From: a virus
Lineage: Duplodnaviria; Caudoviricetes
Virus record (IMG/VR): IMGVR_UViG_3300049924_000165
Span: 1-51,256 of that record
Direction: 5' to 3' (one strand)
DNA: 51,256 bases
A model generated the notes under the pieces. It saw only the letters and a program-made list of their open reading frames with translations, ran no database searches and had not been told where the DNA came from. Positions 11,392 through 49,057 of this stretch are shown here, piece by piece (positions within the stretch are counted from its first letter, which is position 1; the number at the start of each line of letters is the position of its first letter). The position numbers and the translations under genes were made by a program.

Positions 11392-11568
11392 ATGAAATTC
11401 CTGAGTGCGTTTCTGGATTGGTTATTCCCATCGCGCATGAAGGTCGAGCAGGACAGATGGGCGAAGCTGCCGCCGCCGTCTGCGATTCTTACGTGTGAAG
11501 GAAAACTCTTTCCAGAGCAGATCGAAAAGCTGAAAGCCGAGTGGTATAACCATTACGTCGGAAAGTGA
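11392..11568 (+). CDS. Small hypothetical protein (58 aa, not in the ORF track)
   Basis: ATG 11392 after AAGGTGG; MKFLSAFLDWLFPSR...; stop overlaps the next GTG. Confidence 0.5.
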   Translation: MKFLSAFLDWLFPSRMKVEQDRWAKLPPPSAILTCEGKLFPEQIEKLKAEWYNHYVGK

Positions 11569-12326: not shown

Positions 12327-12374
12327 ACCCCGGCGGGCACCTGATCACCACCGCAGCAGGGGAGACTGGCGGCA

Positions 12375-13750: not shown

Positions 13751-14498
13751 CATCATGGAGTCGGGCCATGCGCGCGTCGCGCAGCGCACCGATCCGCGCA
13801 AGGTCCGCATCATGTATCAGGGGCGGCACGCCTGGGATGAAATCTGGCGCAACAATCCGCGCATCGCAACACTGGACGAGGAGGGCGATTTTCAACTGCT
13901 CTACGCGAAGCACCCGCGCACCAACATGCGCGCCTATCACACCGCCAAGGCGCCTACCCGCTGGACGTATAACCTGGATTTCCGTCCCGAAGTGGGCGAG
14001 ATATATCTCACCGAAGCGGAGCGGGCCTTCGGTGCGCAGCATGCCGGGCGGGTTATCATAGAGCCGCATATCAAGGCGGGAGCGAGTCCGAACAAGCAAT
14101 GGGGCTGGGCGCGGTGGAACAAGCTCGCTTGGCTACTATCCGGCGCGGGAATTCGCGTCACGCAATTGGGACCGAACACAACGGAGTTGCTCGATGGGGC
14201 TGACTTCATTGCTACGCCGACGTTCAGGATGGCGGCTGCGGTATTGGCAACAGCGCATGCAGCTTGCCTACCGGAAGGCGCAACTCACCATGCGGCTGCC
14301 GCGCTGGGCATCCCGGCCGTCGTCATCTTCGGCGGTTACATTGCTGTCGAGACAACGGGCTATTCGATACACAGGAATTTGGGCGTGAGCGTGGGCGAAG
14401 CGTGTGGGATGCGGCTGCCGTGCAAGCACTGCGCGGTCGAGATGGCGAAGATTACGCCGGAGCGAGTGTTTACGGAGATGATGGAAATCATCGGATGA
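13734..14498 (+). CDS. GT9 (heptosyltransferase-like) glycosyltransferase
   Basis: TTG start after GGAGG gives MGIGDSIM; NKQW...W, EGATHHAAAALGIPAVVIFG, M..ITPERV. Confidence 0.8.
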   Translation: MGIGDSIMESGHARVAQRTDPRKVRIMYQGRHAWDEIWRNNPRIATLDEEGDFQLLYAKHPRTNMRAYHTAKAPTRWTYNLDFRPEVGEIYLTEAERAFGAQHAGRVIIEPHIKAGASPNKQWGWARWNKLAWLLSGAGIRVTQLGPNTTELLDGADFIATPTFRMAAAVLATAHAACLPEGATHHAAAALGIPAVVIFGGYIAVETTGYSIHRNLGVSVGEACGMRLPCKHCAVEMAKITPERVFTEMMEIIG

Positions 14499-15172
14499 AA
14501 ATCTCCATCCTGTGCCCTTCACGCGGGCGCCCCGACCGGTTCAATGCGATGCGGGCGAGCGCGTGGGCTCGTGCGGACAATCCAGATGAGGTAAGTATCA
14601 AGCTGGCGCTCGATGCGGACGATCCGACTTTCAATAGCTACCCGCCACCGGAGCACACCCAGCACTTTCGCACCCCGCCCGCGTGCCTGTTGAACGCGTT
14701 GGCGCACAAGGCAGACGGCGATATTCTGATGGCGGCATCGGACGATATCCTGTTCCGCACACAGGGATGGGACACGAAGGTTCGGGCGGTAGCGGCGCGG
14801 TTTCCTGATGGGCTTTTCATCGCATCTCCCATGAACGGTGACAGCAGGCGGCGCGTAAACCACTGGTTCACCGGACGGCAGTGGCTGAAGGTATTCGGCT
14901 GGATGGCGCCCGCGCACTTCGAGCACTTCTGCGAGGATGAATGGGTGCAGGCAGTTGCCGAGGCCGCCGGGCGCCTCGTTTACATGGACGACGTTCTAAT
15001 CGAGCACATGCACGCTAAATATGGCAAGGGTGCGAACGACGAGGGCTACAAATCGAAGCGGCAGAGGGGCGCTGATGGTAGTAGCATGAGCGCACGGGAT
15101 ATCGCCAAATTCAACCAGTTAGCGCCGGCGTTGGCTCGGGATAAGGATATGCTGCGGAAGGCGATTGGATGA
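14495..15172 (+). CDS. GT2/GT-A fold glycosyltransferase
   Basis: MKISILCPSRGRP, LDADD, GDILMAASDD, IEHMH. ATGA overlap with the previous gene. Confidence 0.8.
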   Translation: MKISILCPSRGRPDRFNAMRASAWARADNPDEVSIKLALDADDPTFNSYPPPEHTQHFRTPPACLLNALAHKADGDILMAASDDILFRTQGWDTKVRAVAARFPDGLFIASPMNGDSRRRVNHWFTGRQWLKVFGWMAPAHFEHFCEDEWVQAVAEAAGRLVYMDDVLIEHMHAKYGKGANDEGYKSKRQRGADGSSMSARDIAKFNQLAPALARDKDMLRKAIG

Positions 15173-15393
15173 TGTGGACTGATCTGCTCCAGATCGGGGC
15201 CGCTCCCGATCGTAAAGCCTATTTTCAACACTACCGCAGAAAGAACAAGAAACACATTCGCGGCGTTCGCCGCAGATACTACCTGATGAATCGTTCGCGC
15301 ATACTGAAGAAGCACGCAGAGTGGCAACGGGCTGACCCGGCGCGCCATGCCGCGAGGATGCGCAGATGGCGCGCCAAAAGAAAGGCAGCATGA
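15169..15393 (+). CDS. Small highly basic protein
   Basis: Arg/Lys/Tyr-rich, 74 aa, coupled on both sides; resembles the charged helices of phage endonucleases. Confidence 0.5.
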   Translation: MMWTDLLQIGAAPDRKAYFQHYRRKNKKHIRGVRRRYYLMNRSRILKKHAEWQRADPARHAARMRRWRAKRKAA

Positions 15394-17348
15394 AGCGCGT
15401 CTATCTGAACGAATACAACATCCGGATGGAGAAGTCGGCCTACCTGCCGATTGCCACAGGGCTGCTGCGCGCGTTCGCGGAGACTGCGGCAGATGTGCGC
15501 GACAATTACACGTTCGCGCCGTTCAACTATCACATGGATTCGCTCGTCAATATCATGAGCGGATACGATGCGCCGGACGTGGCCGCGTTCTCCGTCTCGA
15601 TGTGGAACGAGCAGTTGAATCTGGCGGTGGCCGCAGAAGTAAAGCGCCGCTGGCCATACTGCTTGATCGTGATGGGTGGACCGCAAGTGCCGCAGCACCC
15701 GCAGGAATATTTCAAGCGTTACCCGTTCCTCGACGTCGCGGTGCGCGCCGAGGGGGAGGAAGCGTTCACGAAGATCCTGCTGCGCAATCTTGAGTCCAGA
15801 AACTTCGACGGTCTGACCGGGGTTTCCTATCGCAAGGATGGCGAGTGCATCCGCAATACGGTGGAGTCGCACCAGCCGAAAGACCTGGATATGTATCCGT
15901 CTCCCTACCTCGAAGGGCTATTCGATGGCGTGATGCAGGATGCCGAACGGCGCGGGATGGGAATGCAGGCCATCATCGAAACCAACAGGGGTTGTCCCTT
16001 CCCTTGTTCTTTCTGCTATTGGGGCCAAGGTGGCCTCTCGCGCAAGTATCGCTTTCACGGCGTCGAGCGCGTGAAGCAAGAGATTGAATGGGCGGCGCGC
16101 AATAAAATCCGCTACCTGTTCAACGCGGATTCCAACTTCGGCATGCACAAGCGCGACGAAGAGATCGCGCAGATACTGGTGGACGTGAAGCGCGAGTATG
16201 GATTCCCTGAGAAGTTCCGGACCTGTTTCGGCAAGAACGCAGACGAGCGTATCTACGAGATTGCGAAGAAGCTGCACGGCGCCGATCTGGAAAAAGGCAT
16301 CACGCTCGCGCTGCAATCGAACAATAAAGAGGTTCTCAAGAATATCCAGCGCCAGAACATCAAGTTGGAAACCTACAAGAATCTGCAAGTGAAGTTCAAC
16401 GATGCGCATGTGCCGGTGTATTCGGAACTCATCCTTGGCATGCCCGGCGAGACGCTCGAAACCTGGAAAGAGGGCATCGAGGCGATGCTGTCCGCCGGTC
16501 TCAAGAATCAGCTATTCATCTACCTCTGCCAGATTTTCCCGAACACCGAGATGGCCGACCCGGAGTATCAGAAGCGGTTCGGCATCGTTACGCAGCGCAT
16601 CGAATTGAACGAGATTCACGGCGCCATCAGGACGCCTGATCTCACGACGGAATACGAGGATGTGATCGTCACGACCAACGCGATGCCGCTTGTGATGTGG
16701 CGCGACATGGTGTTGTTCTCGTGGCTGACGATGGTGATGCACTCGTTGAAGGTAATGTTTTTCGTGACACTCTATCTGGCGCATCGGCACAAGAAACCGT
16801 TTACCGACTTCATCGCCTTCATGATGAAATACGGTGACCGATTCCCGCACATCGCGTCCGAGTTGCGCGAGTTCAATTCACAGATCGACAGGCTGCTGGC
16901 GGGGCAGGGGCGCGGACGCAAGGTGGAGGGTTATGCGCCCATCTATTGGGACGAGGAAGAGGCGAGTTTCCTACGCATCGCGGAGCAGGTCGATCCGTTC
17001 TACGAGGAAATGCTCGACCTGACTCGCTCATATCTGGAGTGCAACGACATCGCGCACGACGAAGCGGAACTGCGGGAGGTGATTACCTACCAGCGTCTGC
17101 GCATCCCGACCGCCCAGGACGAAGCGTTGCGCGTGCATGTATTCAACCAGAATGTCCCGGAGTATTTCGACCGGTTGCTAACGTCCATACCGGTGGAGTT
17201 GCGCGAGAGCATGCAGACCATGACGATTCACTCCCGCCAGTTTCCAGACAAGGGGCGCTTCGCGGTTGAGACGCTGATGTGGGGCCGCAAGAGCGGAACA
17301 ATAATGACGAAGGTGGAATGGAAAGAACTCGAAAGGATAGCTGCGTGA
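15390..17348 (+). CDS. Cobalamin-binding radical SAM enzyme
   Basis: N-terminal B12 domain (PDVAAFSVSMWN...IVMGGP, VRAEGEE), ETNRGCPFPCSFC (CxxxCxxC), ADSNFG, ELILGMPGET. Confidence 0.92.
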   Translation: MKRVYLNEYNIRMEKSAYLPIATGLLRAFAETAADVRDNYTFAPFNYHMDSLVNIMSGYDAPDVAAFSVSMWNEQLNLAVAAEVKRRWPYCLIVMGGPQVPQHPQEYFKRYPFLDVAVRAEGEEAFTKILLRNLESRNFDGLTGVSYRKDGECIRNTVESHQPKDLDMYPSPYLEGLFDGVMQDAERRGMGMQAIIETNRGCPFPCSFCYWGQGGLSRKYRFHGVERVKQEIEWAARNKIRYLFNADSNFGMHKRDEEIAQILVDVKREYGFPEKFRTCFGKNADERIYEIAKKLHGADLEKGITLALQSNNKEVLKNIQRQNIKLETYKNLQVKFNDAHVPVYSELILGMPGETLETWKEGIEAMLSAGLKNQLFIYLCQIFPNTEMADPEYQKRFGIVTQRIELNEIHGAIRTPDLTTEYEDVIVTTNAMPLVMWRDMVLFSWLTMVMHSLKVMFFVTLYLAHRHKKPFTDFIAFMMKYGDRFPHIASELREFNSQIDRLLAGQGRGRKVEGYAPIYWDEEEASFLRIAEQVDPFYEEMLDLTRSYLECNDIAHDEAELREVITYQRLRIPTAQDEALRVHVFNQNVPEYFDRLLTSIPVELRESMQTMTIHSRQFPDKGRFAVETLMWGRKSGTIMTKVEWKELERIAA

Positions 17349-18283
17349 AAGCCTTATTCATCACAACAACAACGAACGAAACCTGCAAGCACTACGAATC
17401 CTTTCTGAGTCTCCCCGGTTCCGAGGTCGAGCTCTACGTCTACCGAAACGGCAAGCCAAAGGGTAGTCGCGAACCATTCATCACCGGAGACGCGCTCGAT
17501 AGCGAGATATACGCTGCCGCAAAAGCCTACGCTCCGCACATCATTGTTTATATCGGCGCGTGCGGCGGCAACGTGCCAAGCATCGCGTTGTTCAAGAGGT
17601 TGGCAACGCAGATTGCGCCGATTGTCCACTTCTGCTCTGACGCCTCGGATGATCCGTGGTGGCCGTGGCTGCTTGAATACGAAAAGGCGCGCTGCTTCAA
17701 TGTTCAGGTTGCGCTGGACGGCAGCAAGAACTGGCCTCTAAATGGTTCGGGGTTGTCCGCGTTGACAGTCGTAGACCCTGGCTTTTTCAAGAACGGCGGG
17801 CGGCGCCATACCGAACGCACCATGCCGTTTGGCTTTGCCGGCAATGTGACGGGCGGGCGCAATTCACTGATCAAGCAACTGATGGCGACGGGGCTAAACG
17901 TGAGGGTGCGCGACACCGGCCCAACGAGCTATCCGGGCTTCGCTGAATATCTGTGCCAGTGCAAGGTGACGGTCAACTTTCCGTGGACCGGATCGGGCCG
18001 GCACATGCACGTCAAGGGGCGCGTGCTGGAATCCGCCTTCGCTGGTGTGTTGTTGCTCGAGCAGCGCGCTGCCCCGACGAAGGAATGGTTTACCCCTGGA
18101 GTCGATTACATTGAATACGATGATGCCGCGAGCGCGAAGAAACTGGCGGACCATTACGCCGCGCATCCGGAGGAATCGCAGCCCATCGCGGACAGCCTTG
18201 CGCGGAGGGTGCGCGCCGAGCATGGGCCGGTGCAGTTCTGGGGCAGAGTGTTCAAGCGCATTGGTCTTGAGGCGCCTGCATGA
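17345..18283 (+). CDS. CgeB-like (Glyco_trans_1_2) GT-B glycosyltransferase
   Basis: FGFAG, KVTVNF, KGRVLESAFAGVLLL, WFTPGVDYIEY. GTG start overlaps the previous stop. Confidence 0.8.
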   Translation: MKALFITTTTNETCKHYESFLSLPGSEVELYVYRNGKPKGSREPFITGDALDSEIYAAAKAYAPHIIVYIGACGGNVPSIALFKRLATQIAPIVHFCSDASDDPWWPWLLEYEKARCFNVQVALDGSKNWPLNGSGLSALTVVDPGFFKNGGRRHTERTMPFGFAGNVTGGRNSLIKQLMATGLNVRVRDTGPTSYPGFAEYLCQCKVTVNFPWTGSGRHMHVKGRVLESAFAGVLLLEQRAAPTKEWFTPGVDYIEYDDAASAKKLADHYAAHPEESQPIADSLARRVRAEHGPVQFWGRVFKRIGLEAPA

Positions 18284-19161
18284 GAGCGTTGATCACCGGC
18301 ATCCATGGCGCGGCGGCGCACTACCTGCGCGAGTATCTGATCGAGCACGGTGATGAGGTTCATGGCATCGGGCGTCCGCAAGTCGAATTGACCGATTACG
18401 CGCAGGTCGTAACCGAGTTACGGGCGATTGCGCCAGAGGTGATCTACCATTTGGCTGCCGATGCTGATGTGCTGGCTTCATTCGAGGATGGCGGGCGAAC
18501 ACTCAGGAACAATATCGACGGGGCGTTTAATGTCCTGGAGGCTGCGCGGAATCTTTCCAAGCAGCCCGTTGTGCAAATCTGTTCGACATCCGAAGTTTAC
18601 GGTGATCCGGAGTTATCGCCAGCCGGGGAAACATGGCCGCTTGTGCCATCCAATCCCTATGCCGTCAGCAAGACGGCGCAGGATCTGCTCGGGCAGATGT
18701 ATGCCAAATGCTATGGCATGCGCGTTGTCATTACCCGCGCGTTTGGCTATGTCAACCCGCGCCGGCGCGACCTGTGCCTGTCGAGTTTTGCGAGTCAGAT
18801 TGTCGCCATAGAGCGCGGCTTGCAGGACGTATTGAAACACGGGAACCTTGATTCCGTCCGCACGTTTTGCGATACACGCGATATTGCGCGCGCCTATGCT
18901 TTCGCTGCCGATCTGCAGGGCGTTTACAACATCGGATCTGAGGCTGAGATATCCATCTGGCAATGTCTGGAAATACTCAAGGGCATGGCGCATCGCCCGA
19001 TCAGGACCGAGCCCGATCCGAAACTGATGCGACCGCTCGACATCAAGCGCTGCGTGCCGGACTGCACGAAGTTTCGCATGGCGACGGGCTGGGAGCCGGT
19101 GATCCCGCTGGAGGATTCCCTGCGCTGGCTGCTCAATTACTACCGGATGACGCCGACATGA
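18280..19161 (+). CDS. GDP-mannose 4,6-dehydratase/Rmd-like extended SDR
   Basis: ALITGIHG, IYHLAA, STSEVYG, NPYAVSK (YxxxK), GNLDSVRTF, DPKLMRP. Confidence 0.85.
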   Translation: MRALITGIHGAAAHYLREYLIEHGDEVHGIGRPQVELTDYAQVVTELRAIAPEVIYHLAADADVLASFEDGGRTLRNNIDGAFNVLEAARNLSKQPVVQICSTSEVYGDPELSPAGETWPLVPSNPYAVSKTAQDLLGQMYAKCYGMRVVITRAFGYVNPRRRDLCLSSFASQIVAIERGLQDVLKHGNLDSVRTFCDTRDIARAYAFAADLQGVYNIGSEAEISIWQCLEILKGMAHRPIRTEPDPKLMRPLDIKRCVPDCTKFRMATGWEPVIPLEDSLRWLLNYYRMTPT

Positions 19162-19721
19162 TTACGGTCGCATGCGTCAACGTCGGAAACTACCTCGGGC
19201 ATGGCGAGGAATATGTGGATAAGCTGTGCAAGATGGTCGCGTGCAATCTCTCGTTCTCGCATCAATTCGTCTGCATCAGAGAATCCGATAAGCCCGGCTG
19301 GTTTGCGAAGTGCGACCTGTTCAGGCCGGGACGCTTCAGCGGGCGCGTGCTCTATCTCGATCTGGATACGTTGGTGGTCGGTTCCCTTGACCGCCTTGTG
19401 CTGAACAAGGGAATCCTGCATCTGCGCTATTGGGGCTGGAAGCGCAACGACTACGGCAGCGGCGTGATGGTGTGGGATGCTGGCGAGCATGAGGAAATCT
19501 TCGCACTCTACGATGAAACCGTGCCGCAGCGGTTTAAGGGTGACCAGGACTGGATACAGCACGTCAGCGAGTGGCCGGCATTGCCCACTGGCCTGAATGT
19601 CTCCTACCGTTACCATTGCAAGCGCGGGCCGGACGCAGGCGCGGCTACGGTATCATTTCACGGATCACCGAAACCCCATGAATTCCCGCCAGACCATTGG
19701 GTGACTAAAGCATGGAACTAG
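19158..19721 (+). CDS. GT8-like glycosyltransferase
   Basis: VLYLDLD (DxD), SGVMVW, GDQDWI, FHGSPKPH. Confidence 0.78.
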   Translation: MITVACVNVGNYLGHGEEYVDKLCKMVACNLSFSHQFVCIRESDKPGWFAKCDLFRPGRFSGRVLYLDLDTLVVGSLDRLVLNKGILHLRYWGWKRNDYGSGVMVWDAGEHEEIFALYDETVPQRFKGDQDWIQHVSEWPALPTGLNVSYRYHCKRGPDAGAATVSFHGSPKPHEFPPDHWVTKAWN

Positions 19722-20476
19722 AGCCGGTCCACTACTTCATCCCCGTCAAGAACCGGCACCACGGCGAGGCGATAGCTACCGGATTCCGCGCCCGCAAGGT
19801 GGATGCGTGGCAGAAGAAACTGGAACCGAACGCGCTCCATCTGATTGGCGGTCTGCAGTTCGGTTCGCTCGAATTAATGCAGCAGGTTCGCAATACTTCA
19901 GAGCCGTATATCTTTTTCGACCGCGCCTATTTCAGTGGCGGACCTGGGACTAACCGGCTGCGCGCTACCCGCAACGCTTACCAGCAAAACTGGATACGTC
20001 CAAGTTCTCCAGATCGTTTCAGGAAAACGGGGATTGAACTAAAACCGTGGCGCAAGGATGGGCGGCACATCATGCTCGTGCCGCCGGGCGAAGCGATAGC
20101 AGCGTTGTTCGACTTCGGCCCGCTATTCGCACAGATGCGTGAACGTCTGATGCAGTTCGGCCGCCCGGTCATGGTCAGCGTTAAAGGTGATGCGCGCCCA
20201 CTGTCGCAGCGCCTGCGAGATTGTTGGTGCGTGGTAACATGGACGAGCAACGTGGCGGTCGAAGCTATTTGCGCTGGCGTGCCGGCTTTTGTTTCCAACT
20301 ACAGCGCGGCGGCGCCGGTGGCGGGAATGCTCGAATCAATGGAATGGCAGATGGAATCACCGAAGATGCCGGAGCGTGAGGCGTGGGCGAATAGCCTAGC
20401 ATACGGAGAGTTCAGCGTGTCCGAGATAGAAAGCGGCTACGCTCGGTCCGTTATCATGCAGGACGCTCGGCCATGA
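19712..20476 (+). CDS. Second capsule-synthesis (KpsS/KpsC-like) glycosyltransferase
   Basis: FFDRAYF, LKPWRKDGRHIML, WCVVTWTSNVAVEAICAGVP, LAYGEFSVSEI; paralog of 12375..13181. Confidence 0.65.
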   Translation: MELEPVHYFIPVKNRHHGEAIATGFRARKVDAWQKKLEPNALHLIGGLQFGSLELMQQVRNTSEPYIFFDRAYFSGGPGTNRLRATRNAYQQNWIRPSSPDRFRKTGIELKPWRKDGRHIMLVPPGEAIAALFDFGPLFAQMRERLMQFGRPVMVSVKGDARPLSQRLRDCWCVVTWTSNVAVEAICAGVPAFVSNYSAAAPVAGMLESMEWQMESPKMPEREAWANSLAYGEFSVSEIESGYARSVIMQDARP

Positions 20477-23142: not shown

Positions 23143-24918
23143 GTGGCGCTAGCGGGCACACTCGAAATCCAGATGTTCGCGGAGATATCGCGTCTCCGTG
23201 CGGACATGGAGAAGGCGACCGGCGTTGTCTCGAAGGCTACCAAGAACATAGAAAGTTCCGTTGAGACTGCCAAGAAGGCGCTCGGTCTGTTGGGCGTCGG
23301 CATCGGTGTCGGATTCTTCGCCACGCTCATCAAGGGCAGCATAGACGCGCAGGACAGACTTCTGGACCTGAGTAAGACGACCGGAATACTGGTCGAGGAT
23401 TTGGCGGGGCTGAAGCTCGCTGCCAAGCAATCGGGCGGGGATCTGAACAGCATCGCGGAGAGCATCAATAAGCTATCCGTGAACATGGGGAAGGACTCGG
23501 AGAAGTTCCGCCAGTTGGGCGTCACCGCGAAAGACCCGCTCGAAGCGTTCAAGCAACTCGCTGACATTTACACGAAACTCCAAGACCCGCAGCAGCGCGC
23601 CGCCGTGATGGCGCAGGCGTTGGGGAAGGCGTGGGCAGGTGCCGCGCCGCTGCTCTCAGAAGGCAGCGCGAAGATTCAGGAGTTGGTGGACAAGGGAAAG
23701 GCGTTGTCCGGCGTCACCAAGGAATCCGCAGAGCAGGCTGACAAGTTCAACGACCAGATGACGGAGTTGAATGCCACGCTGGAAGGCACGCGGATGAAGG
23801 CCATCGGACCGCTGTTGCCGCAGATGAACGAAGTCGCCAAGGCGATGGGCGAGGCAGCGAGGGAGGGCGGTCTGCTGCTCGCGGTATGGGTGGCATTGGG
23901 CGGGTTGTTCGCCACCATATTCAATCTGAATCTTCCGAAGGCGATGCAGATTCAGAAGGAATTGATTGACCTGACCGGTGAGGCGGAAAAGCTCTCACGG
24001 TCTATCCAGTTCATGAACAGCAGCGTGAGTCCCGGTGCGCGAGAGCGGCAGCAGGACCAGCTTGCGATGATCAACGCTCGCATCGAGTTGCTGAAGAACG
24101 AGCAGCGGTTGCTGCAAGAGCCGCCGAAGCCAGCGGTGGGTGGAGACAAGGCGACCGAGGAAGCGGCTGCAAAGTTCCTCGGTGGTGACAAGGAAAAGGG
24201 CGACTCATTCCTTGCCAAGCAATTGCAGGAGGGCATGGACGAGGAAGCGAAGATCATGGCGGAAGCGTCGCAATTGTCGGACGACTTCCGGGCGAGAGAG
24301 CGGGATGAAGAAGAAAAGCAAACGCAGTTCCTGATTGATTTGAAGAACGCGGAGGCAGAAGAAGAAAGGCGGTTGCAACTAGAGAACGCGCAGATCATGG
24401 ACGACTTCCGAGCCAAGGAGCGCGCCAGAGATGCTGCGCAGAAGGAGGAAATGTTCGGTCAGGCTCATACCTTCTTCGGTTCTCTTTCCAAGTTGATGGA
24501 TACCGAATCGAAGAAGCAATTCAAAATCGGCAAGGCTGCGGCTCAGGCGGAAACGGCCATCAATACCTACAAAGCTGCGATGGCAGCTTATGGTGCGCTG
24601 GCGGGAATCCCCTACGTCGGTCCAGCGCTCGGAGCTGCTGCTGCAGCAGCCGTCATAATTGCCGGCGCGGCTCAGATCAGCAATATCGGTAGCACGCAGA
24701 TAGGAGGCGGTCAGGGTGTCGGAACCTTCCCCATCAACCCGACCACTCAGCAGCCCATCGGAACACCGGGCGGTGACGTCGGGAATCGCGGTGGTCAGAC
24801 CACGATCATCAACATGCCGCCCGGCCAGTTCTTCGACCGCAAAACGGTGCGCGGTCTGCTCGAAGGATTGAACGAGGAGTCGAACGATGGCTCCCGCATC
24901 ATAGTGAACGAACGATGA
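23143..24918 (+). CDS. Tail tape measure protein
   Basis: GTLEIQMFA N-terminus, Ala/Lys/Glu-rich helical sequence, hydrophobic segments, expected position. Confidence 0.88.
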   Translation: MALAGTLEIQMFAEISRLRADMEKATGVVSKATKNIESSVETAKKALGLLGVGIGVGFFATLIKGSIDAQDRLLDLSKTTGILVEDLAGLKLAAKQSGGDLNSIAESINKLSVNMGKDSEKFRQLGVTAKDPLEAFKQLADIYTKLQDPQQRAAVMAQALGKAWAGAAPLLSEGSAKIQELVDKGKALSGVTKESAEQADKFNDQMTELNATLEGTRMKAIGPLLPQMNEVAKAMGEAAREGGLLLAVWVALGGLFATIFNLNLPKAMQIQKELIDLTGEAEKLSRSIQFMNSSVSPGARERQQDQLAMINARIELLKNEQRLLQEPPKPAVGGDKATEEAAAKFLGGDKEKGDSFLAKQLQEGMDEEAKIMAEASQLSDDFRARERDEEEKQTQFLIDLKNAEAEEERRLQLENAQIMDDFRAKERARDAAQKEEMFGQAHTFFGSLSKLMDTESKKQFKIGKAAAQAETAINTYKAAMAAYGALAGIPYVGPALGAAAAAAVIIAGAAQISNIGSTQIGGGQGVGTFPINPTTQQPIGTPGGDVGNRGGQTTIINMPPGQFFDRKTVRGLLEGLNEESNDGSRIIVNER

Positions 24919-25688
24919 ACTATCAAGCACATTACGATCGGTTGATAGAGCGGGCGTGTAGCCGGACGCTCGCAGGATACGTCGAGCGTCACCATGTCGT
25001 TCCAAAGTGTCTCGGCGGTAGTAATGCGAAAGAGAACATTGTCGAGTTGACGGCTGAGGAACACTACGTTGCGCATCAGCTTCTAGTAAAGATGCATAAA
25101 GCACATGCAGGACTAGCTTACTCGGCGGTTCGCATGGGTAACAGAAAGTCAGGCAGGCGTTTGTATGGTTGGCTTCGAGAAAGATATGCGGCATCTAGGA
25201 GGGGTAAGAAGCGCTCTCCATTCTCGGCTGAACATATTGCCAATCTTACAGACGCGCTTCGCGGAAGAAAGATGCCGCCGCGCACCGCTGAACATCAATT
25301 GAAAATTGATTCTGCTCGGCGCGGCAAGAAACGCTCGCCAGAGTTAAACGCAAGAATGTCTGCCGTTCTGAGGGTTGCAATGGCAAGACCAGAGGTTAGG
25401 GCTAAGTTGTCAGCGGCCAAGATCGGAACCAAAGGTTCTAGATTGGGGGCGAAGAACTCTGTTGAACACCGAGCCAAAATATCACTAGCAATGAAAGGAA
25501 AGTCATCTCCACACAAAGGTAAGAAAGCAACCGCAGACAGTATAGCCAAGAATTCTTCTGCGCATCTTGGGCAGGTTGCATGGAACAAAGGAAAGAAGGC
25601 TACGCAGGAGATGATTGCAAAAAACTCCGCATCGCACATGGGGCAAGTGGCTTGGAATAAGGGTAGACGTTCGGAGAACGTAAGTTGA
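24915..25688 (+). CDS. HNH homing endonuclease with NUMOD3 repeats
   Basis: ERHHVVPKCLGGSN...NIVELTAEEHYVAHQLL; repeated basic motifs and AWNKG. Confidence 0.88.
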   Translation: MNYQAHYDRLIERACSRTLAGYVERHHVVPKCLGGSNAKENIVELTAEEHYVAHQLLVKMHKAHAGLAYSAVRMGNRKSGRRLYGWLRERYAASRRGKKRSPFSAEHIANLTDALRGRKMPPRTAEHQLKIDSARRGKKRSPELNARMSAVLRVAMARPEVRAKLSAAKIGTKGSRLGAKNSVEHRAKISLAMKGKSSPHKGKKATADSIAKNSSAHLGQVAWNKGKKATQEMIAKNSASHMGQVAWNKGRRSENVS

Positions 25689-26521: not shown

Positions 26522-28939
26522 GTGACTGATTACGGACGAGAAACTATTACGGTTATCGAGCTGGATGTTCCGCAATGCCAGCTTGAATACGGCACCACCA
26601 ATGCCTTCGGAACCTGCCAAGCATCTCTGACACCGGTCGGTTCCCCGCCGATCGCTACGGGCGATCACAAGTGCTTCAATACCAGAGTCACCTGTCAGGA
26701 CGCGGATAACTACAATCCCGCAACGCAGATCATCCGCTTCGCGCACCCGCAACGCGGGCTGTCGCAAAACTACGACAACGTATTCCCATCGCTCTCCGGT
26801 CCCGTGCAAACAACACCTGGGGCGATCAACCTCGGCGGCATGGACCGCAGCTTGTCAGCGCTCGGCGCCCGCGAAACGGTTCAGATGACGTTAGAGGATC
26901 ACCAATGGAACGATCATCTGTTCGACAAGTATCGGCTTGAACGCATCAGCGGCGCGGCGCAGGCGCCCGCAGGTTCCCCGCCTGTATCTGAAACCTACAA
27001 CCCGCTGGAGCGCGGGTCGTTTTGGGGAAAGTTCATTGCGCGCAATCCTTACCATTCCAATTACCGGGCCAGGGTTAAGCAGGGCTTCATGGGGCAGGCG
27101 CTGGACGACATGATGACCCGTAGCTATATCGTTGACCGCATCACGGGGCCGACGAATGGCAAAGTGCAGATGGTGCTGAAGGATTTATTCTCGCTGATCG
27201 AAGTCCGTAAGTCGGTAGCTCCCTTCGCTTCTCAGGGAGAATTGAGCGCGAACATAACCGGCACGCCAGCGAGCTTTACGCTGCTGCCGGTTGGCATCGG
27301 TAGCTTGACAGAAGAAGAGGGCGGTTACGCTTCGATTACCGCCGTTGCGTCCGGCTTCGTGGCAATCGGTGACGAGGTAATCGAGGTTACCCGTTCGGCC
27401 GATGTGTTCACCGTAGTGACCCGCGCCGCTTTGAACACTGAGCAGTCGGATCATGACTCCGAGGATCTGGTGCAGTTCGTGCTGACTTTCGACAGCGAAT
27501 TAGCGCACGACATTATCTACACGCTTCTGACCGGATACGCGGAGATATTGCCAGCAGAGATTCCTAAAGCAACCTGGGACATCCTGGCTGCAACGATGGA
27601 CGAACTCTATACAGCCCGCATCACGCAGCCCACGGCTGTGCGCGATCTGATCGGTGAATTGTGCGAGCAGGCGGGTTGCACGGTTTGGCCCGATCCTGAA
27701 ACCGGATTGATCGAATTCCGTCCGCTTCGGCCAACCGCTTCTAGCACGGTTGTGAATGACCGTGATTGGATAGTGGATGGTTCTCTGGAAATGAAGCGAC
27801 AGGACGCGAAGCGCGTATCTCGTTGCCTTGTCTACTACGGTCAGAAAAATCCAACAGTTGATCTTGAAGATGTTCGGAACTTCCGTTCGCGGGTGATAAC
27901 GCCGGACCTGGACGCAGAGAGTTCCACTCAGTATGGCGTGCCAGCCATCAAGGTGGTGACGAGCCGCTGGATACCGCAGTTTTCAAGGCAAGTTGCCGCT
28001 GGCGTTGGTTCGCGCATAGTTGCGTTGTTCCGCGATCCTCCGCTTGAAGCGAGTTTCCGTATCCACATGAGCCGCGACGGGGAACTTGCGTTGGCGCAGC
28101 CGTTCCTGTTGCAAACTTTCGAGGCGCAGGACGACACGGGGGCGGAAGATCAGATATTGATGGAGCCGGTGGAGATTTCCCGCGACGAGAACGAAATATA
28201 CCTGAAAGCGCAGGGCGTCACGTTCTTTACCGAGACGGATGATTCGGGCATCCGCACGATATTCCTAGACACTCCGGATATGTTCAACCTTAACCTGCGC
28301 ACGATTCACGATCAAATCTACCAGCCGCCGGTCGGTGGTGAAGTGGTGAACGTGATTCTAGTTTCTGGATTTACGGTTGGGTCGGAGACTACAGCGCTAC
28401 CTGCCATGCGCACCGGAAGCTGGCCTGCTGGCGTCACGCTTTCTCTCGTCACACTGGGCGGAAGGATACAAGGACGTGGCGGTGACCCCGGCTTATACAC
28501 TGGAACAGGACCGCTATATCAGGATGCCGGTGCGGGTGGTGATGCAATTTTGGCAGAGGTGCCAATCTCCATAGATAACACTGGCGGGGAGATATTCTCT
28601 GGCGGTGGCGGTGGTGGTGTTAGCATAACCACTGGACCAACTTTCATATTTGCTGGAGGGGGAGGCGCCGGAACCGATCCCGGCTCTGCAGGGCAATCAT
28701 ACGACGGAATTATCGTTACGAACGGTGCTCCTGGAACTGCTGATGCAGGAGGGCTTGGAGGCGTGAGCGTCTTTGATTCAGCGCAGCATGGGGGTGACGG
28801 CGGCGGCCCTGGAATAGCAGGAGGAACTGGAACTGTTGCTGGGGAAAATCGCGCTGGTGGTGCTACGGGCAACTACATCACCGGCAACAGTTTCGTGACG
28901 TGGGTTGGAACCGGCGACCGGCGCGGTGGTGTAGCATAG
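26522..28939 (+). CDS. Tail tip / baseplate hub protein with a glycine-rich C-terminus
   Basis: 805 aa; N-terminal C..YG...C...KCFNT..TC; Gly-rich C-terminal domain. Confidence 0.75.
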   Translation: MTDYGRETITVIELDVPQCQLEYGTTNAFGTCQASLTPVGSPPIATGDHKCFNTRVTCQDADNYNPATQIIRFAHPQRGLSQNYDNVFPSLSGPVQTTPGAINLGGMDRSLSALGARETVQMTLEDHQWNDHLFDKYRLERISGAAQAPAGSPPVSETYNPLERGSFWGKFIARNPYHSNYRARVKQGFMGQALDDMMTRSYIVDRITGPTNGKVQMVLKDLFSLIEVRKSVAPFASQGELSANITGTPASFTLLPVGIGSLTEEEGGYASITAVASGFVAIGDEVIEVTRSADVFTVVTRAALNTEQSDHDSEDLVQFVLTFDSELAHDIIYTLLTGYAEILPAEIPKATWDILAATMDELYTARITQPTAVRDLIGELCEQAGCTVWPDPETGLIEFRPLRPTASSTVVNDRDWIVDGSLEMKRQDAKRVSRCLVYYGQKNPTVDLEDVRNFRSRVITPDLDAESSTQYGVPAIKVVTSRWIPQFSRQVAAGVGSRIVALFRDPPLEASFRIHMSRDGELALAQPFLLQTFEAQDDTGAEDQILMEPVEISRDENEIYLKAQGVTFFTETDDSGIRTIFLDTPDMFNLNLRTIHDQIYQPPVGGEVVNVILVSGFTVGSETTALPAMRTGSWPAGVTLSLVTLGGRIQGRGGDPGLYTGTGPLYQDAGAGGDAILAEVPISIDNTGGEIFSGGGGGGVSITTGPTFIFAGGGGAGTDPGSAGQSYDGIIVTNGAPGTADAGGLGGVSVFDSAQHGGDGGGPGIAGGTGTVAGENRAGGATGNYITGNSFVTWVGTGDRRGGVA

Positions 28940-28947
28940 GGGTCAAC

Positions 28948-29826
28948 GTGAACTATTCGGCACATTATGATCGGCTGATTGCCCGCGCTCGTATCCGAGT
29001 TCTTACCGGATACCGAGAACTTCACCACGTTGTTCCTCGCTGCATGGGTGGCGGTGACGACAAAGCAAATCTCGTAGGACTTACGCCAGAGGAACACTAC
29101 GTCGCGCATCAGTTGTTGGTGAAGATGCACAAGAGCAATATCGGGCTTGTGTGGGCCTCCGTTAACATGTCCTATCGCGCTGGACGGAACAAGGCTTACG
29201 GATGGTTGCGCCGCCGCCTTGCAAATGAAGTCTCAGAAATGAATAGAGGAAATAAGTATAGCGTTGGGCGAAAACATACGCCGGAACAGAGAGCCAGGAA
29301 CTCTGCCGCGCGGATTGGTAAACCACTTCCGAGGGAACAGGTTGCCAAGATGGTTTTAGCGAATACTGGCCGCAAGATGTCAGCAGACCATAGAGCAAAG
29401 ATGGAGCCTATCTGGGCGGCGCAACGCGGTCAAAAACGTAATATTCACTTTACCGCAGAAGCGCGCGCGAAGATATCTGCTACGCATAAAGGCAATACTC
29501 GTGCGCGAGGAAAGAAATTGCCGCCTCGTTCTGCTGAGTTTAGGTTGAAGATGCGAAATGCCAATCTCGGTAAGCGTCATTCAGCAGAGACTCGTGCCAA
29601 GATAAGCGCCATACAGGTAGGTAAGAAATTAACGGCAGAGCATCGCGCTAAGATTTCAGCCGGTATGCGTGGGAACCGAAATTGCATAGGAATTAAACAG
29701 TCACTAGAAACTCGTGCAAAAAGATCGGATACATTGCACCTACCGGATGTATATGCAAAACTGGTGGCCGCAAATACCGGCCGCGTTCCTTGGAATAAAG
29801 GTAAGACTTTCAAGAAGGAACAATAA
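28948..29826 (+). CDS. Second HNH/NUMOD3 homing endonuclease
   Basis: ELHHVVPRCMGG...NLVGLTPEEHYVAHQLL, several H.AE.RAKIS repeats, PWNKG. Confidence 0.88.
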   Translation: MNYSAHYDRLIARARIRVLTGYRELHHVVPRCMGGGDDKANLVGLTPEEHYVAHQLLVKMHKSNIGLVWASVNMSYRAGRNKAYGWLRRRLANEVSEMNRGNKYSVGRKHTPEQRARNSAARIGKPLPREQVAKMVLANTGRKMSADHRAKMEPIWAAQRGQKRNIHFTAEARAKISATHKGNTRARGKKLPPRSAEFRLKMRNANLGKRHSAETRAKISAIQVGKKLTAEHRAKISAGMRGNRNCIGIKQSLETRAKRSDTLHLPDVYAKLVAANTGRVPWNKGKTFKKEQ

Positions 29827-44976: not shown

Positions 44977-45064
44977 ATGAAGCTAAGCCATGGCCTTTCC
45001 AGAATCCCCACTTACGACACATGGATGAAGATGCATCTCAGGTGTCGCAACGAATTTGATAAAT
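44977..45064 (+). pseudogene. 5' remnant of an HNH endonuclease cut by the IS
   Basis: HGLSRIPTYDTWMKMHLRCRN (HG.S....Y..W..M..RC.N motif) runs directly into the IS inverted repeat. Confidence 0.7.
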
Positions 45065-45225
45065 CCGACAGTATGTACTTAGCGAAAGGGACGCTTTGTG
45101 ATGCCCAACCGATGCCCAACAAGTCACAGCACTCAGTCCAAGAAATCTGTTATTCTTTTCTTATCGTAGGTGCAAAGGAGTGAAAGCCTATGATTATTAA
45201 TATGATTTCAGTTCAATACGACGCT

Positions 45226-45780
45226 CTACCCTTGGAATACAAGCTGGATGAGTGGCGCGCCAGCGGGAAGGTTCACGTCCTCAATAGAGTGGATAATCCC
45301 GCTATCGAGCGCGTATGTCGCATCCTTGGTCTCGGCCTGTCGGAACAGCCGATTGACCTTGGTGCCTTTCAGCGCCGTTTCCTGACTGATTACACTTCCA
45401 ATTCGCTTGTGATCGGCGTCGATCGTCCCTAAGCACTCGCGGAGCGTTTTCTCCTCAAGACGAGTAGGGTTGGTCAGATCGAATCCTACGCCGTGAAACA
45501 TGAAGGTCGAGTGCGGCGAGGCTTTGCGCCTTTTCCCCGCTAAGAAAATCGCGTTGCCAATCGAATCCACGTTCCCCACATTATGCATGGTCGTCTTAAC
45601 CGGCAAACCCTTAATGATGTTGTAGAGCGTCATTCCTTGGGCAACCTCACCACCAGGTGAGGCAAATAAGTAGTAGATATGAGTTGCCCCTTTTTGGAGT
45701 TGATCGAAAGTCGCGGCGAGTAAATTCTGAGTCGTGAACAGGTTTATCTTCGCATTAAAAGAAATATAAACAGTAGCCAT
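45226..45780 (-). CDS. ClpP-like protease (IS cargo)
   Basis: FASPGGEV..G..LYN, VDSIGNAIFLAG (Ser), STFMFH (His), ALDSGII. Confidence 0.82.
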   Translation of the reverse strand: MATVYISFNAKINLFTTQNLLAATFDQLQKGATHIYYLFASPGGEVAQGMTLYNIIKGLPVKTTMHNVGNVDSIGNAIFLAGKRRKASPHSTFMFHGVGFDLTNPTRLEEKTLRECLGTIDADHKRIGSVISQETALKGTKVNRLFRQAETKDATYALDSGIIHSIEDVNLPAGAPLIQLVFQG

Positions 45781-45781
45781 C

Positions 45782-45919
45782 TTATCCCCCCATCTTATTG
45801 GGCCACTTCCTTTTAGGGCGCTGCTTAGTCAGCGCCTTTCTTACGAGCTTCTCCCAGTCGCCCTTTAGTTTAAGGCGCTCTGGTGCTGGCCCTGGTGGTT
45901 TCTTCGGCTTTTCTGCCAT
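45782..45919 (-). CDS. Small basic protein downstream of the transposase
   Basis: MAEKPKKPPGPAPERLKLKGDWEKLVRKAL...; GGAGAG RBS. Confidence 0.55.
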   Translation of the reverse strand: MAEKPKKPPGPAPERLKLKGDWEKLVRKALTKQRPKRKWPNKMGG

Positions 45920-45921
45920 AG

Positions 45922-46881
45922 CTACTCTCCGTCTACCAGTTGACGGTAGGTGAGCCGCTTGTGATTCGCGGCCTTGATCGCCTTCACCATACGCTGGCCG
46001 TCACTCATCGCCCCGTTATCATGCCTGAACTCGAATTCGGATAGGTAGCGGTGCAGATGTTTCTTGCTCACGCTATGGTAAATCCCGTTCAAGCCACGCT
46101 TGAGCATCCCGAAAAACCCTTCGATGGAATTGGTATGCACATCCCCTCGCACATATTCATACATGCTGTGGCAAACCGCTTCATGCTTCCAACCCGCATT
46201 AGGTAAACCGCGATAGCCAGACCATTCATCGGTCAGGATGCGGGAGGATTTGTCCACGTTCGCAGCAATAACAGCCTTAAGCGTTTTTCCAGTAACGTCC
46301 GCCACAACCCTAGGGCGAACACGGCCACCCCGTTCCTTCAATCCCACAACAATAGCCTTCTGCTTCTTGACCGTCTTGTGGCTGTTGTGGATATGGCGCG
46401 GCTTTCCGCCGATGAACACTTCATCCACTTCAACGTCACCCTTCAGCGGCTCAATGTCCTGGGCGTCCATTGCGTAACGGATGCGATGCAGCAGGAACAA
46501 CGCTGACTTGTAGCTGAGGCCGGTCTGCCGGTGAATCTCCAACGCGCTAACGCCCTTCTTGGACGTGGATGCACGATAGAACCCATAGCACCAGTGCTTA
46601 AGCGGGATGCGGCTATCCTCGAATACCGTTCCTACACGCACCGTATATTGCTGCTTGCAATCATGGCAGCGCCACCGGAAGTTCTTTTGACGTTCGCCAG
46701 TCGTAGCGTCCTTCATCTGATAGACACTCAAGCTGCCGCAGTGAGGGCAACAGGGATGATCGCCCCAGCGCTGCTTTTCCATGAATTCAACAGCGGTCTT
46801 TTCATCGGCGCAAGCAAGGGGCACCTCACCAATAGGCGAGTCCTCTTTCGTGGATTGGTTTTGAACAAGCGTCTTTTTCAT
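45922..46881 (-). CDS. IS1595-family transposase
   Basis: Zn ribbon CPHCG...RCHDC, HTH, VEVDE, ILTDE, HTNSIEGFF..LKRG, YLSEFEFR; GGAGG RBS before ATG 46881. Confidence 0.95.
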   Translation of the reverse strand: MKKTLVQNQSTKEDSPIGEVPLACADEKTAVEFMEKQRWGDHPCCPHCGSLSVYQMKDATTGERQKNFRWRCHDCKQQYTVRVGTVFEDSRIPLKHWCYGFYRASTSKKGVSALEIHRQTGLSYKSALFLLHRIRYAMDAQDIEPLKGDVEVDEVFIGGKPRHIHNSHKTVKKQKAIVVGLKERGGRVRPRVVADVTGKTLKAVIAANVDKSSRILTDEWSGYRGLPNAGWKHEAVCHSMYEYVRGDVHTNSIEGFFGMLKRGLNGIYHSVSKKHLHRYLSEFEFRHDNGAMSDGQRMVKAIKAANHKRLTYRQLVDGE

Positions 46882-46900
46882 TTGAACCTCCATGAGCATC

Positions 46901-46932
46901 ATAATACTTGAGTAAATGCATTACGTCAAGTA
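46901..46932 (-). promoter_or_regulatory. Sigma70 promoter of the transposase with an overlapping inverted repeat
   Basis: TTGACG-N17-TATTAT on the minus strand; TACTTGA-N14-TCAAGTA dyad. Confidence 0.75.
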
Positions 46933-47004
46933 AAAAGACGATATTTAAATCCTCATGGATTCAGTACGTTAGTACAAGTGCTTGAAGTACTTGACTTTTT
47001 AGAG

Positions 47005-47105
47005 TGCGGGCGGCAAGATTCGAACTTGCATGGCTGTTGCTCGACGCGTTAGTCGCAGCCGGCGGATTCCTGGTCCGCTGTGTATGCCGATTCCACCACG
47101 CCCGC
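47005..47105 (-). tRNA. Atypical tRNA (Leu-type body, anticodon AGG, extended variable arm)
   Basis: Acceptor stem GCGGGCG/CGCCCGC-A; D-arm GTGGAATCGGCATACAC; anticodon arm GCGGA-CCAGGAA-TCCGC; T-arm GCAAG-TTCGAAT-CTTGC; no encoded CCA. Confidence 0.75.
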
Positions 47106-47129
47106 GTTATCGCCTATATCCGCAGCGCT

Positions 47130-47591
47130 TTACGACTTCCCAAATCCCTCCGGTATTTCGTCTGACGCATGCGCTGAGCCGGTCGCGTCCAGGGTTATCA
47201 AAGCAAAGGTGTTAGGCGCTGTTTTCTTGAAGCCAATGCCCTCTCTTGCGTAACGTGAGAGCGTCCCGACTAGGGCAAGCTTAGCCTTCTTATCTCCAGA
47301 TTTTCCCATTCTTTCAAGTATTTGATCAGCATGCATCGGTGCGGCATGTTTTTCCAGTATTACGCGCACGATCTCCGGAGTGCTCCCCTTTCTGAACTCC
47401 ACGTTTCGTCCATCTGATCCACTACTGGAGGCCTCATCCCTCTGCACCCTTGGCAGGATGTCTTGAAGCCCAGCGATATATGCTCTTGCAGCCTCCTTCT
47501 TCATGTGAAGTGACTGAATTTCTTGTTCTATTTCAGTTACTTCCGATTCTTTAGCGCGAATTCGCTTTAGTATATCCTGTAGCAACCCCAT
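47130..47591 (-). CDS. Coiled-coil plus winged-helix protein (IS cargo)
   Basis: N-terminal coiled coil; ILEKHAAPMHADQILERMG...LVGTLSRY...FKKTAPNTFAL. Confidence 0.7.
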   Translation of the reverse strand: MGLLQDILKRIRAKESEVTEIEQEIQSLHMKKEAARAYIAGLQDILPRVQRDEASSSGSDGRNVEFRKGSTPEIVRVILEKHAAPMHADQILERMGKSGDKKAKLALVGTLSRYAREGIGFKKTAPNTFALITLDATGSAHASDEIPEGFGKS

Positions 47592-47715
47592 AGGACCCCC
47601 ATCAAAGTTCATGCCATTTTGTGCCGAATGGCAAAACATGTCAATAGATGACAGTATATTGGATTGCCATTTCTGCGGTAAACTGCAAATTCTCGACACT
47701 TGCTGAGCGACCACC

Positions 47716-48525
47716 ATGAGCACCGAACTTTCCACGCTAGTAAGCAATCTCAATTCCGTCAAGCGTACCGCAATAAACGGGGCAGAGTATTGGATGGCCC
47801 GCGACATTCTTCGGCCGCTGGGGTATCTGACATGGGAAAGCTTTGCCAAAGTTATCGAGCGAGCAAAGTTAGCTTGTGAAAGTGCTGGAACATCTCCTAG
47901 TAACCATTTTCGTGACACCACGAAAAAGGTTGAGATAGGAAGCGGGGCGCTTTCGGAGAGGGCGGATTGCTATCTCTCACGATATGCGTGCTATCTCGTC
48001 GCAATGAATGGCGATACTCGAAAGGCAGAAATAGGGATCGCACAAACCTATTTTGCCGTTCAGACTCGACGCCAAGAGCTTCAAGATCAATCTACATCGC
48101 TGGAAAAACGACTAGAACTTCGCCAGCGTGTAGCTGTTGCCAATATTGCTCTTGGAAGCGCCGCCAAAGCAGCCGGTGTACAGCGATATGGTCTATTTCA
48201 AGATGCTGGGTATCGTGGTCTCTACGGCATGGGGCTAGGGGACATAAAAAAACGCAAGAATATCGAGGGTGATTTGCTTGATCACGCTGGGAGAGTCGAA
48301 CTTGCAGCAAATGAGTTTCGTATCACACAAACGGAACAAAAAATAGTCAATGAACACGTCCAGGGCGAGCAGAACGCTGTTATCACTCATAAGACGGTTG
48401 CGGCAGAGGTCCGAGCAACTATCAAGAAATTAGGGGGGACGATGCCGGAGGACCTTTCACCAGAGCCGTCATTGAAAAAGCTGATTCAAGCCAAAAAAAC
48501 TAAACAATTGCCTAAAGCTAAGTAG
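47716..48525 (+). CDS. dinD: DNA damage-inducible protein D family (BRO-N domain)
   Basis: EYWMARD...LGY..W..F..VI.RA..AC, LSRYACYLVAMNGD.RK.EI..AQTYFAVQTRRQE, ELAANEFRITQTE, GGTMPEDL. Confidence 0.88.
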   Translation: MSTELSTLVSNLNSVKRTAINGAEYWMARDILRPLGYLTWESFAKVIERAKLACESAGTSPSNHFRDTTKKVEIGSGALSERADCYLSRYACYLVAMNGDTRKAEIGIAQTYFAVQTRRQELQDQSTSLEKRLELRQRVAVANIALGSAAKAAGVQRYGLFQDAGYRGLYGMGLGDIKKRKNIEGDLLDHAGRVELAANEFRITQTEQKIVNEHVQGEQNAVITHKTVAAEVRATIKKLGGTMPEDLSPEPSLKKLIQAKKTKQLPKAK

Positions 48526-48556
48526 CTTAGCCCCTTTCCGTAAGTACATACTGTCG

Positions 48557-49057
48557 GACCCGGTAACGGCAATGCAGCGCACCAAGGCGCTCGGTCTGCT
48601 TTACAAGCAGATCAAGAAGGACTCCGCCATGTCCCGCATGGGAATCCCGGATTACGTGGTGACGATGCGTAAACCAGGCGAGAACGCCCATCGCGTAACG
48701 CACACTCCTGATGATCTACCGGTGAGCGAATGGCAGAAAATTGCCAGCCCGATCTGGATGGACATAAATCCATCCGACACGCTGCAATTCAGATCCGCTC
48801 GCGAACACAAAGACGAGCGGCACATCTGCCCGCTACAGCTTGAAGTGATTCGGCGCTGTATGCGGCTCTGGTCTAATCCTGGCGATTTGGTTTTCAGTCC
48901 GTTTTCTGGAATCGGAAGCGAAGGATTCATTGCATTGCAAATGCAGCGAAAATTCTTGGGCGCGGAATTGAAGAGCAGTTATTGGGAGCAGGCTTGGCGT
49001 AATCTGGATCAGGCGAAGCAGGAGCAATGCGGACTGTTCGCGGAAGAATCGGCATGA
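48557..49057 (+). pseudogene. C-terminal fragment of an N4/N6 DNA methyltransferase
   Basis: DPVTAMQRTKALGLL, HICPLQL, WSNPGDLVFSPFSGIGSEG (FxGxG). No catalytic SPPF/DPPY motif; the frame begins at the IS end. Confidence 0.8.

Follow-up and report, generated by a model that had tools for sequence, protein, structure and literature searches.

A tRNA gene inside a transposable element of a phage genome raises two questions: why a tRNA with the body of a leucine tRNA has an anticodon that reads proline codons, and which protein such a tRNA would act on. To our knowledge natural mistranslating tRNAs are known, with their purpose and target proteins open. At this locus the likely target can be read from the sequence, as it consists of those codons of the linked transposase gene that change with the anticodon. 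If true, this would be a new mode of transposition regulation and an example of a selfish element that gives codons a meaning of its own; the transposase sequences translated in databases, like the “tRNA-Pro” annotations of such genes, would be wrong.

The DNA analysed, termed the window, is one virus record of 51,256 bp with terminase, capsid, portal and tail genes. Its tail region also contains two genes for homing endonucleases and several that resemble glycosyltransferase or epimerase genes (11565–20476, 24915–25688, 28900–29826).

The tRNA gene and the element that carries it

The tRNA gene is part of an IS1595-family element (Table 1), which has terminal inverted repeats and a transposase with a DDE_Tnp_IS1595 domain and an N-terminal zinc finger, i.e. 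the features of this family. The element contains the transposase, a 45-aa open reading frame, the tRNA and three larger passengers; no synthetase was found among its open reading frames.

Table 1. Positions in the window of the element, its genes and the codons discussed in the text.
Feature	Position	Strand	Basis
IS1595-family element with passenger genes, 3,491 bp	45066..48556	.	inverted repeats, comparison with relatives
Left terminal inverted repeat	45066..45090	+	repeat search; end placed from relatives with 8-bp duplications
ClpP-like protease domain, passenger gene	45226..45780	-	PF00574, E 1.4e-12
45-aa basic, Pro-rich open reading frame, second core gene of the element family	45782..45919	-	motif search
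IS1595 transposase, 326 aa as listed, zinc ribbon and DDE domain	45922..46902	-	PF12760, E 2e-11; PF12762, E 7e-40
CUG Leu codon, transposase residue 322; anticodon-matched Pro codon in many relatives, Leu in distant relatives	45937..45939	-	codon alignment
CCU codon, transposase residue 197, exact-match marked site of the window copy	46312..46314	-	codon alignment
CCC codon, transposase residue 28, marked site; CCU in L019	46819..46821	-	codon alignment
Candidate transposase promoter, sigma70-like, in the gap that separates the tRNA from the transposase gene	46901..46929	-	10/12 consensus letters
tRNA gene, class II Leu-type, Pro-reading anticodon AGG	47005..47105	-	Rfam match and direct reading
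Anticodon AGG of the tRNA	47069-47071	-	direct reading
Passenger open reading frame directly upstream of the tRNA, coiled coil and winged-helix-like	47130..47600	-	inspection; absent from L019
Passenger gene, Bro-N domain (phrog_8036)	47716..48525	+	domain search
Right terminal inverted repeat	48532..48556	-	repeat search, comparison with relatives

The Rfam tRNA model RF00005 matches the tRNA gene with 47.8 bits (E-value = 4.6e-8, model positions 1–71). Direct reading and this match bear out the tRNA as the preliminary description had reported it: the four stems have standard pairs throughout (acceptor 7/7, D 3/3, anticodon 5/5, T 5/5), the anticodon loop is CCAGGAA with C33 and A37, A73 and A15-U48 are present, and the variable region is 32 nt with a two-part stem. 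The first pair is G1-C72, and a CCA end at the 3′ end of the gene is absent from the DNA. ARAGORN, a check proposed in the same description, detected nothing in the window at default settings and so missed the tRNA that the Rfam model finds; relaxed settings across the loci gave noise too high for counting. The minimum-energy fold keeps the acceptor, variable and T arms and mispairs the D and anticodon arms. Support for the cloverleaf is therefore taken from the covariance model and from covariation (see below), not from the folding energy (z = -2.2; 5 of 200 shuffles are as good). On the family model, termed R1, the window tRNA scores 85.5 bits, being itself part of the model's input.

Leucine identity in E. 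coli is described in sections of PMC9976931 as A73, A15-U48, G18G19 and A20a, with the anticodon and variable arm ignored, and the window tRNA has this entire set. It is not a leucine isoacceptor by its anticodon, as AGG has no A35 and names no Leu codon. The same sections give bacterial proline identity as G72, A73, G15-C48 and G35-G37. The window tRNA has G35, G36 and A73, and at the remaining positions C72 (in place of C1-G72), A15-U48 and A37.

The tRNA lies, as had been stated, between the upstream open reading frame and the promoter-like site of the transposase. The winged-helix label comes from inspection, and Pfam and PHROG gave no match to this reading frame. The promoter candidate (TTGACG-17-TATTAT, read from 46929 to 46901) has identical hexamers in L019, the closest relative of the element, and promoter-like sites in the scan are as frequent in shuffles, with no excess in the real sequence. 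A short inverted repeat between the tRNA and the promoter candidate (46975–46993), with AAGTAC motifs like those of the inner terminal repeats, is a possible binding site.

Transposase residues are numbered here from position 46902, and the true start may be Met8. The structure model of the transposase (mean pLDDT 79.9) gave weak matches to DDE/integrase folds (best E-value = 4e-5); residues 28 and 322 are predicted to be in helices and 197–199 at the start of a strand. The transposase had no match among phage records at an E-value of 1e-40, two plasmid records were at 40% identity, and no relative came up when viral contigs were scanned with the single protein. No RNA data set was listed as carrying the element, and in one DNA sequencing run, which may be the source of the record, read depth is flat and variants are absent; neither result bears on expression. 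The 45-aa open reading frame (GP.PE.LK...W...AL.K.RP..GWP type) was found by motif in 85 of 144 representative elements, whether tRNA-bearing or tRNA-less; a family-name search returned none.

The inverted-repeat arms were detected as 27 nt each (45064–45090 and 48532–48558, 93% complementary). Target duplications of 8 bp are present in 57 of 63 complete relatives; there is none at the window copy, where 2 of 8 flank letters agree. The left end interrupts an HNH-like open reading frame after 30 codons (44977–45065). At the right end the final 166 codons of a helicase/methylase-type gene (48557–49057) follow in frame; relatives of this gene in the 13 phage loci examined are open for at least 570 further codons, and the missing part is found nowhere else in the contig. 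The absence of a target duplication and of this part of the right-flank gene thus looks like a deletion adjacent to the element, after insertion.

Conservation of the tRNA and its match with transposase codons

Three scans with the transposase alignment gave 177 loci (17 viral, the best 80 from metagenomes and the best 80 from genomes), and the same tRNA type was found by an iterated profile in 131 of them. Representatives were taken at <95% identity and a length of at least 280 aa, with two loci removed for short reading frames. The anticodons in the resulting 144 are UGG (95), AGG (7), GGG (2), CGG (1) and GUC (1). None was found in 38, three of which were later shown to have UGG tRNAs of other shapes; many of the representatives without a tRNA are truncated contigs, and 18 elements are confidently tRNA-less.

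Within complete elements the tRNA is inside the element ends in 52 of 52, at variable position and on either strand. L019 and the window copy have the tRNA, promoter region, transposase and small open reading frame in common and all passengers different. The location inside the ends, the variable placement and the sharing with L019 indicate that the tRNA is a core part of the element and not a cis signal on the transposase mRNA. A tree of the representatives (FastTree only) and the complete elements show that the tRNA has been lost several times without loss of intact ends.

Stem pairing in 51 hand-picked members holds in 99.6% of 1,160 cells, compared with 40%–52% in slid controls, and 21 of 23 pairs display compensatory changes. 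This covariation confirms the selection on structure that had been proposed from the window alone. In the comparison of homologs that had been named as a check there is no random decay of the stems, and the anticodon is nearly always NGG. Among 102 parsed members (5 were skipped) A73, U48 and G35-G36 are each present in 101 and A14-A15 in all 102; G72 (as C1-G72) is found in 4, and G37 is missing in 64. The variable region ranges from 13 to 51 nt. When three host genomes were searched with the family model, the top five matches were in every case the five genes for tRNA-Leu (15/15). Leucylation by the host LeuRS is thus likely, as judged from the published E. coli identity rules. The identity elements and the anticodon name different amino acids and both are conserved, which is the mark of a natural missense tRNA.

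Six transposase sites (28, 147, 152, 197, 199 and 322, termed marked sites) were picked on the UGG set, and the other anticodons therefore serve as the test. UGG elements use CCA for 273 of the 297 Pro codons at the marked sites, and for 56 of 510 at ten Pro sites outside this set. AGG elements have CCU at 20/23 vs. 2/33 and GGG elements have CCU at 6/6 vs. 0/11 (marked vs. other Pro sites); the CGG element has CCG at 3/3 marked sites. The AGG and GGG elements are in about six separate places in the tree, and with one element taken from each, 17 of 20 sites are matched vs. 2 of 31. In the 18 tRNA-less elements the bias is much weaker, with CCA at 14/46 marked sites vs. 14/85 elsewhere (p = 0.08; the counts treat related sequences as independent, and p-values are thus overstated). 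At least one matched site is present in all 108 Pro-anticodon representatives, and four further, more distant transposases, reached through the tRNA-only pattern scan described below, match at residue 322 (L280, CCU with AGG; L287, L289 and L290, CCA with UGG). Seven of 97 UGG elements have CCU at position 28. These data establish a site-specific match of the anticodon with the transposase codons, as a relation between sequences.

Codons next to the marked sites are not conserved; an mRNA structure is disfavoured by this, and a programmed frameshift context at the marked sites was rejected on the same ground. No matched codons were found in the passenger clusters. In the small second gene CCA is moderately over-represented at two sites when the anticodon is UGG, and AGG elements show no clear match.

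L054 has a UGG tRNA nested among AGG elements; CCU is still at three of its marked sites and CCA at 322. It looks like a recent anticodon swap caught midway.

A tRNA-only pattern scan of viral contigs gave 17 matches. Nine have an IS1595 transposase sequence within 3 kb (2 of these were previously in the set and 2 are an internally deleted remnant) and eight do not; thus this tRNA type also occurs apart from the transposase. The eight (L278, L279, L281, L286, L288, L291, L292 and L293) are Leu-type NGG tRNAs in phage contigs, one beside an integrase and one in a tRNA cluster. The remnant (L282/L283, ~3120–3310, plus strand) has an N-terminal piece of the transposase joined to the C-terminus and an intact tRNA, is between phage portal and terminase genes, and is possibly a non-autonomous derivative.

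Other tRNAs were encountered in the family as well. L021 has two UGG Leu-type tRNAs in one element (921–1020, plus; 2154–2266, minus). Sister elements (L097/L132, 4595–4783, plus; L137, 4581–4759, plus) each carry two unusual tRNAs of another kind, some with a GUC anticodon on a body that is not of the Asp type, and show no Pro-codon match. Short tRNAs without a normal D arm and with G3-U70 (Ala identity) have UGG or GCA anticodons (L139, 6543–6608, minus; L154, 4681–4748, plus; L138, 2970–3037, plus); the L139 transposase has CCA at 28 and 147. UGG tRNAs with a short variable loop that keep A15-U48 and A73 are found in L147 (5324–5397, minus) and L136 (81–155, plus), the latter with C1-G72, and in both cases the transposase carries CCA codons that match.

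In 13 of 101 regions upstream of the tRNA vs. 0 of 106 downstream, two AGA/AGG Arg codons come after a start codon, often forming a four-codon minigene. This motif lies 100–200 nt 5′ of the tRNA in L031, L033, L043, L054, L058, L065, L107, L108, L109, L111, L119, L127 and L135. The 70 nt before the tRNA have a stable fold in 60 of 101 cases by a lax shuffle (window, z = -3.1). The minigene and the fold may serve to attenuate expression of the tRNA through translation. A search for a conserved -10 box ahead of the tRNA gave 5 of 104 cases vs. 8 in the control.

The amino acid probably inserted and the proposed direction of the effect

The option of a Pro-to-Leu mistranslating tRNA, one of those given in the preliminary description, gains support from the conserved Leu identity and NGG anticodon and from transposase codons that track the anticodon, with charging as predicted above. 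The element's own transposase, a target absent from that description, is the likely one. Recoding of the transposase from Pro to Leu, whatever its direction of effect, is rather probable. That the tRNA inserts Leu at the marked Pro codons and that this likely gives a more active enzyme has about an even chance of being correct. A wider reading, which is slightly favoured, is a private code throughout this widespread IS1595 clade: a Leu-charged tRNA with co-evolving anticodon and codons, transposition switched by competition with host Pro-tRNA, other pairs of identity and anticodon in other IS1595 elements, and mistranslated host proteins as a side effect.

The proposed process would be as follows. 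The tRNA, a core part of the clade that is predicted to be charged with leucine, would read proline codons in competition with the host Pro-tRNA, and only part of the transposase would receive Leu. The Leu form would be the more active, and the ratio of element tRNA to host Pro-tRNA would set a translational throttle on transposition. The marked codons are the rarer Pro codons in flanking genes (CCA 439 and CCU 316 of 2,993), and damage to other proteins should therefore be small.

The direction of the effect was approached with an outgroup of 109 distant relatives (<46% identity). Pro is rare there at four marked sites (28, 3/106; 147, 7/109; 197, 1/109; 322, 8/96), moderate at 152 (24/109) and 199 (22/108), and frequent at control sites (53, 90/109; 100, 87/109; 50, 55/109; 184, 54/109). 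Over 16 sites the outgroup Pro frequency falls as codon matching rises (Spearman -0.61, p = 0.013). This distribution would be expected if the Pro codons conceal a residue other than Pro, and it speaks for activation. Leu is common in the outgroup at two of the sites only, 322 (68/96) and 152 (20/109), and the share of matched codons shows no correlation with outgroup Leu (rho = 0.31, p = 0.25). Site 23 was considered as a further Leu site and rejected, as it was supported in one alignment and not in a better one.

The opposite sign is doubtful in our judgement: the all-Pro transposase would be active, the Leu form folded yet inactive or inhibitory, and the tRNA a brake that acts in trans on every copy and is released on entry to a new cell. 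It would agree with Pro28 in 108 of 109 tRNA-bearing representatives, with the repeated loss of the tRNA from elements with intact ends, and with the 18 tRNA-less elements, which have Pro at 28 in 18/18, at 147 in 10/18 and at 152 and 322 in 7/18, with mixed codons. As Pro is kept there and no in-trans copy was seen among the top matches in three of five genomes, which were all host tRNA-Leu, the Pro form must work in tRNA-less elements, a point against activation. The tRNA-less share of complete elements is 0/11 with Pro197 vs. 10/52, which is not significant (p = 0.19). However, the marked sites tolerate many non-Pro residues in intact elements, Leu is fixed at 152 and 322 in some intact elements (the window copy has Leu at 322), and Leu at 322 is family-wide. 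Moreover, the most conserved Pro sites, which would be the best targets for poisoning, are unmatched (168, CCA 0/90; 184, CCA 1/59).

An unlikely alternative to leucine insertion is that the tRNA delivers proline, e.g. by means of an anticodon-reliant ProRS, or is poorly charged, and that the matched codons set the speed or pausing of transposase synthesis. The near-invariant G35, G36 and A73 are ProRS elements, C1-G72 is present in the few members noted above and in L136, and elements that lack the tRNA still keep Pro; translation inactivity of some allo-tRNAs is reported in part of PMC5389517. Against this, almost no member has G72 or G15-C48 and more than half lack G37, and proline delivery would account neither for matching only where Pro is foreign nor for the switching of the same sites with each anticodon.

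A further reading, an improbable one, accepts the system for the family but takes the window copy to be decaying or losing its coupling, as might be read from C33, the loss of CCU at 28, CCG at 152, the gain of CCU at 53 and the absent target duplication. The Pro codons of the window transposase are CCU at 23, 53, 197 and 234, CCC at 28 and 50, and CCG at 100, 152 and 168. One of the three core Pro sites (28, 152 and 197) has an exact match, and the conserved zinc-ribbon Pro53 has CCU and Pro50 CCC. This is the lowest codon match of the AGG elements listed, and the flanks are rearranged. However, the stems are intact, and relative to L019 the tRNA displays a compensatory change at 31-39 and a different, yet paired, variable arm. 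C33 is not a sign of decay, because 11 of 104 members carry it and these keep the codon match at 32 of 35 sites. The transposases of the window and L019 differ by 94 synonymous and 9 non-synonymous codon changes, which is purifying selection at the sequence level; CCU at 23, 197 and 234 is common to both and 28 and 53 differ (CCC and CCU in the window). In E. coli an AGG tRNA reassigned CCU at 12.9%, CCC at 10.3% and CCG at ~1% (sections of PMC11066159). As the A34 anticodon AGG reads CCC, the CCC at residue 28 is probably still read by the window tRNA, and 50 and 53 would then be read too.

It is very improbable that the tRNA functions without decoding, whether by directing RNase P to the transposase mRNA or as an anticodon-nuclease decoy (both had been proposed from the window alone): the window tRNA precedes the transposase by ~100 bases and shares its strand, and similar tRNAs occur in phage contigs without a transposase, one of them in a tRNA cluster, but this arrangement is found for only 26 of 107 tRNAs, 51 being just downstream on the opposite strand, and codon tracking is predicted by neither role.

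Relation to known systems

No account of an element-encoded tRNA coupled to transposase codons was found in the open literature, to which the search was confined. Among known systems, the tRNA-ProX group (tRNA-ProA, -ProT and -ProN) of Streptomyces and Kitasatospora is likewise natural and bacterial, with identity and anticodon in disagreement, a canonical-type body and A34 anticodons (PMC10404621, in part). These have Pro identity (C1-G72) with non-Pro anticodons and usually a dedicated ProRS nearby, whereas the window tRNA has Leu identity with a Pro anticodon, no synthetase, a location in a transposon and matched codons in a linked gene. The terms “transpos”, “mobile” and “leucine” do not occur in PMC10404621.

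Allo-tRNAs share the long variable arm, an anticodon unrelated to identity, and an occurrence in soil metagenomes, Acidobacteria and Proteobacteria (portions of PMC5389517 and PMC7609411). That certain irregular tRNAs may be connected with transposable elements is suggested, without a mechanism, in part of PMC5389517; these portions of the two papers do not mention transposase codons coupled to such a tRNA. The acceptor branch of allo-tRNAs is 8/4 or 9/3, their D stem is long and closed by a tetraloop, position 73 is G or U, and their identity is Ser or Ala (PMC5389517, same portion). The window tRNA, in contrast, has a 7/5 branch, a Leu D arm (3-bp stem, large loop) and A73, and is not an allo-tRNA.

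Bacterial tRNA-Leu isoacceptors have the same scaffold and identity set and, as described above, are the best genomic matches of the family model. The family tRNA differs from them in the lack of A35, the NGG anticodon, the wide range of its variable region and C33 in a minority.

IS1595-family elements in general likewise have a zinc ribbon and DDE transposase, terminal inverted repeats and 8-bp duplications (sections of PMC8101967). The present elements differ from other passenger-bearing IS1595 elements in having a conserved tRNA and a conserved 45-aa open reading frame as core parts. ISNha5 and ISNwi1 are the names of subgroups within the family.

Transposases are throttled at translation by programmed frameshifts in IS1 and IS3 and by an antisense RNA in IS10, and bldA is a case of codon-specific tRNA dependence, i.e. 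rare-codon control. The element tRNA would share with all of these control at the level of translation; here, the amino acid itself would be changed at marked codons, and the regulator is encoded by the element.
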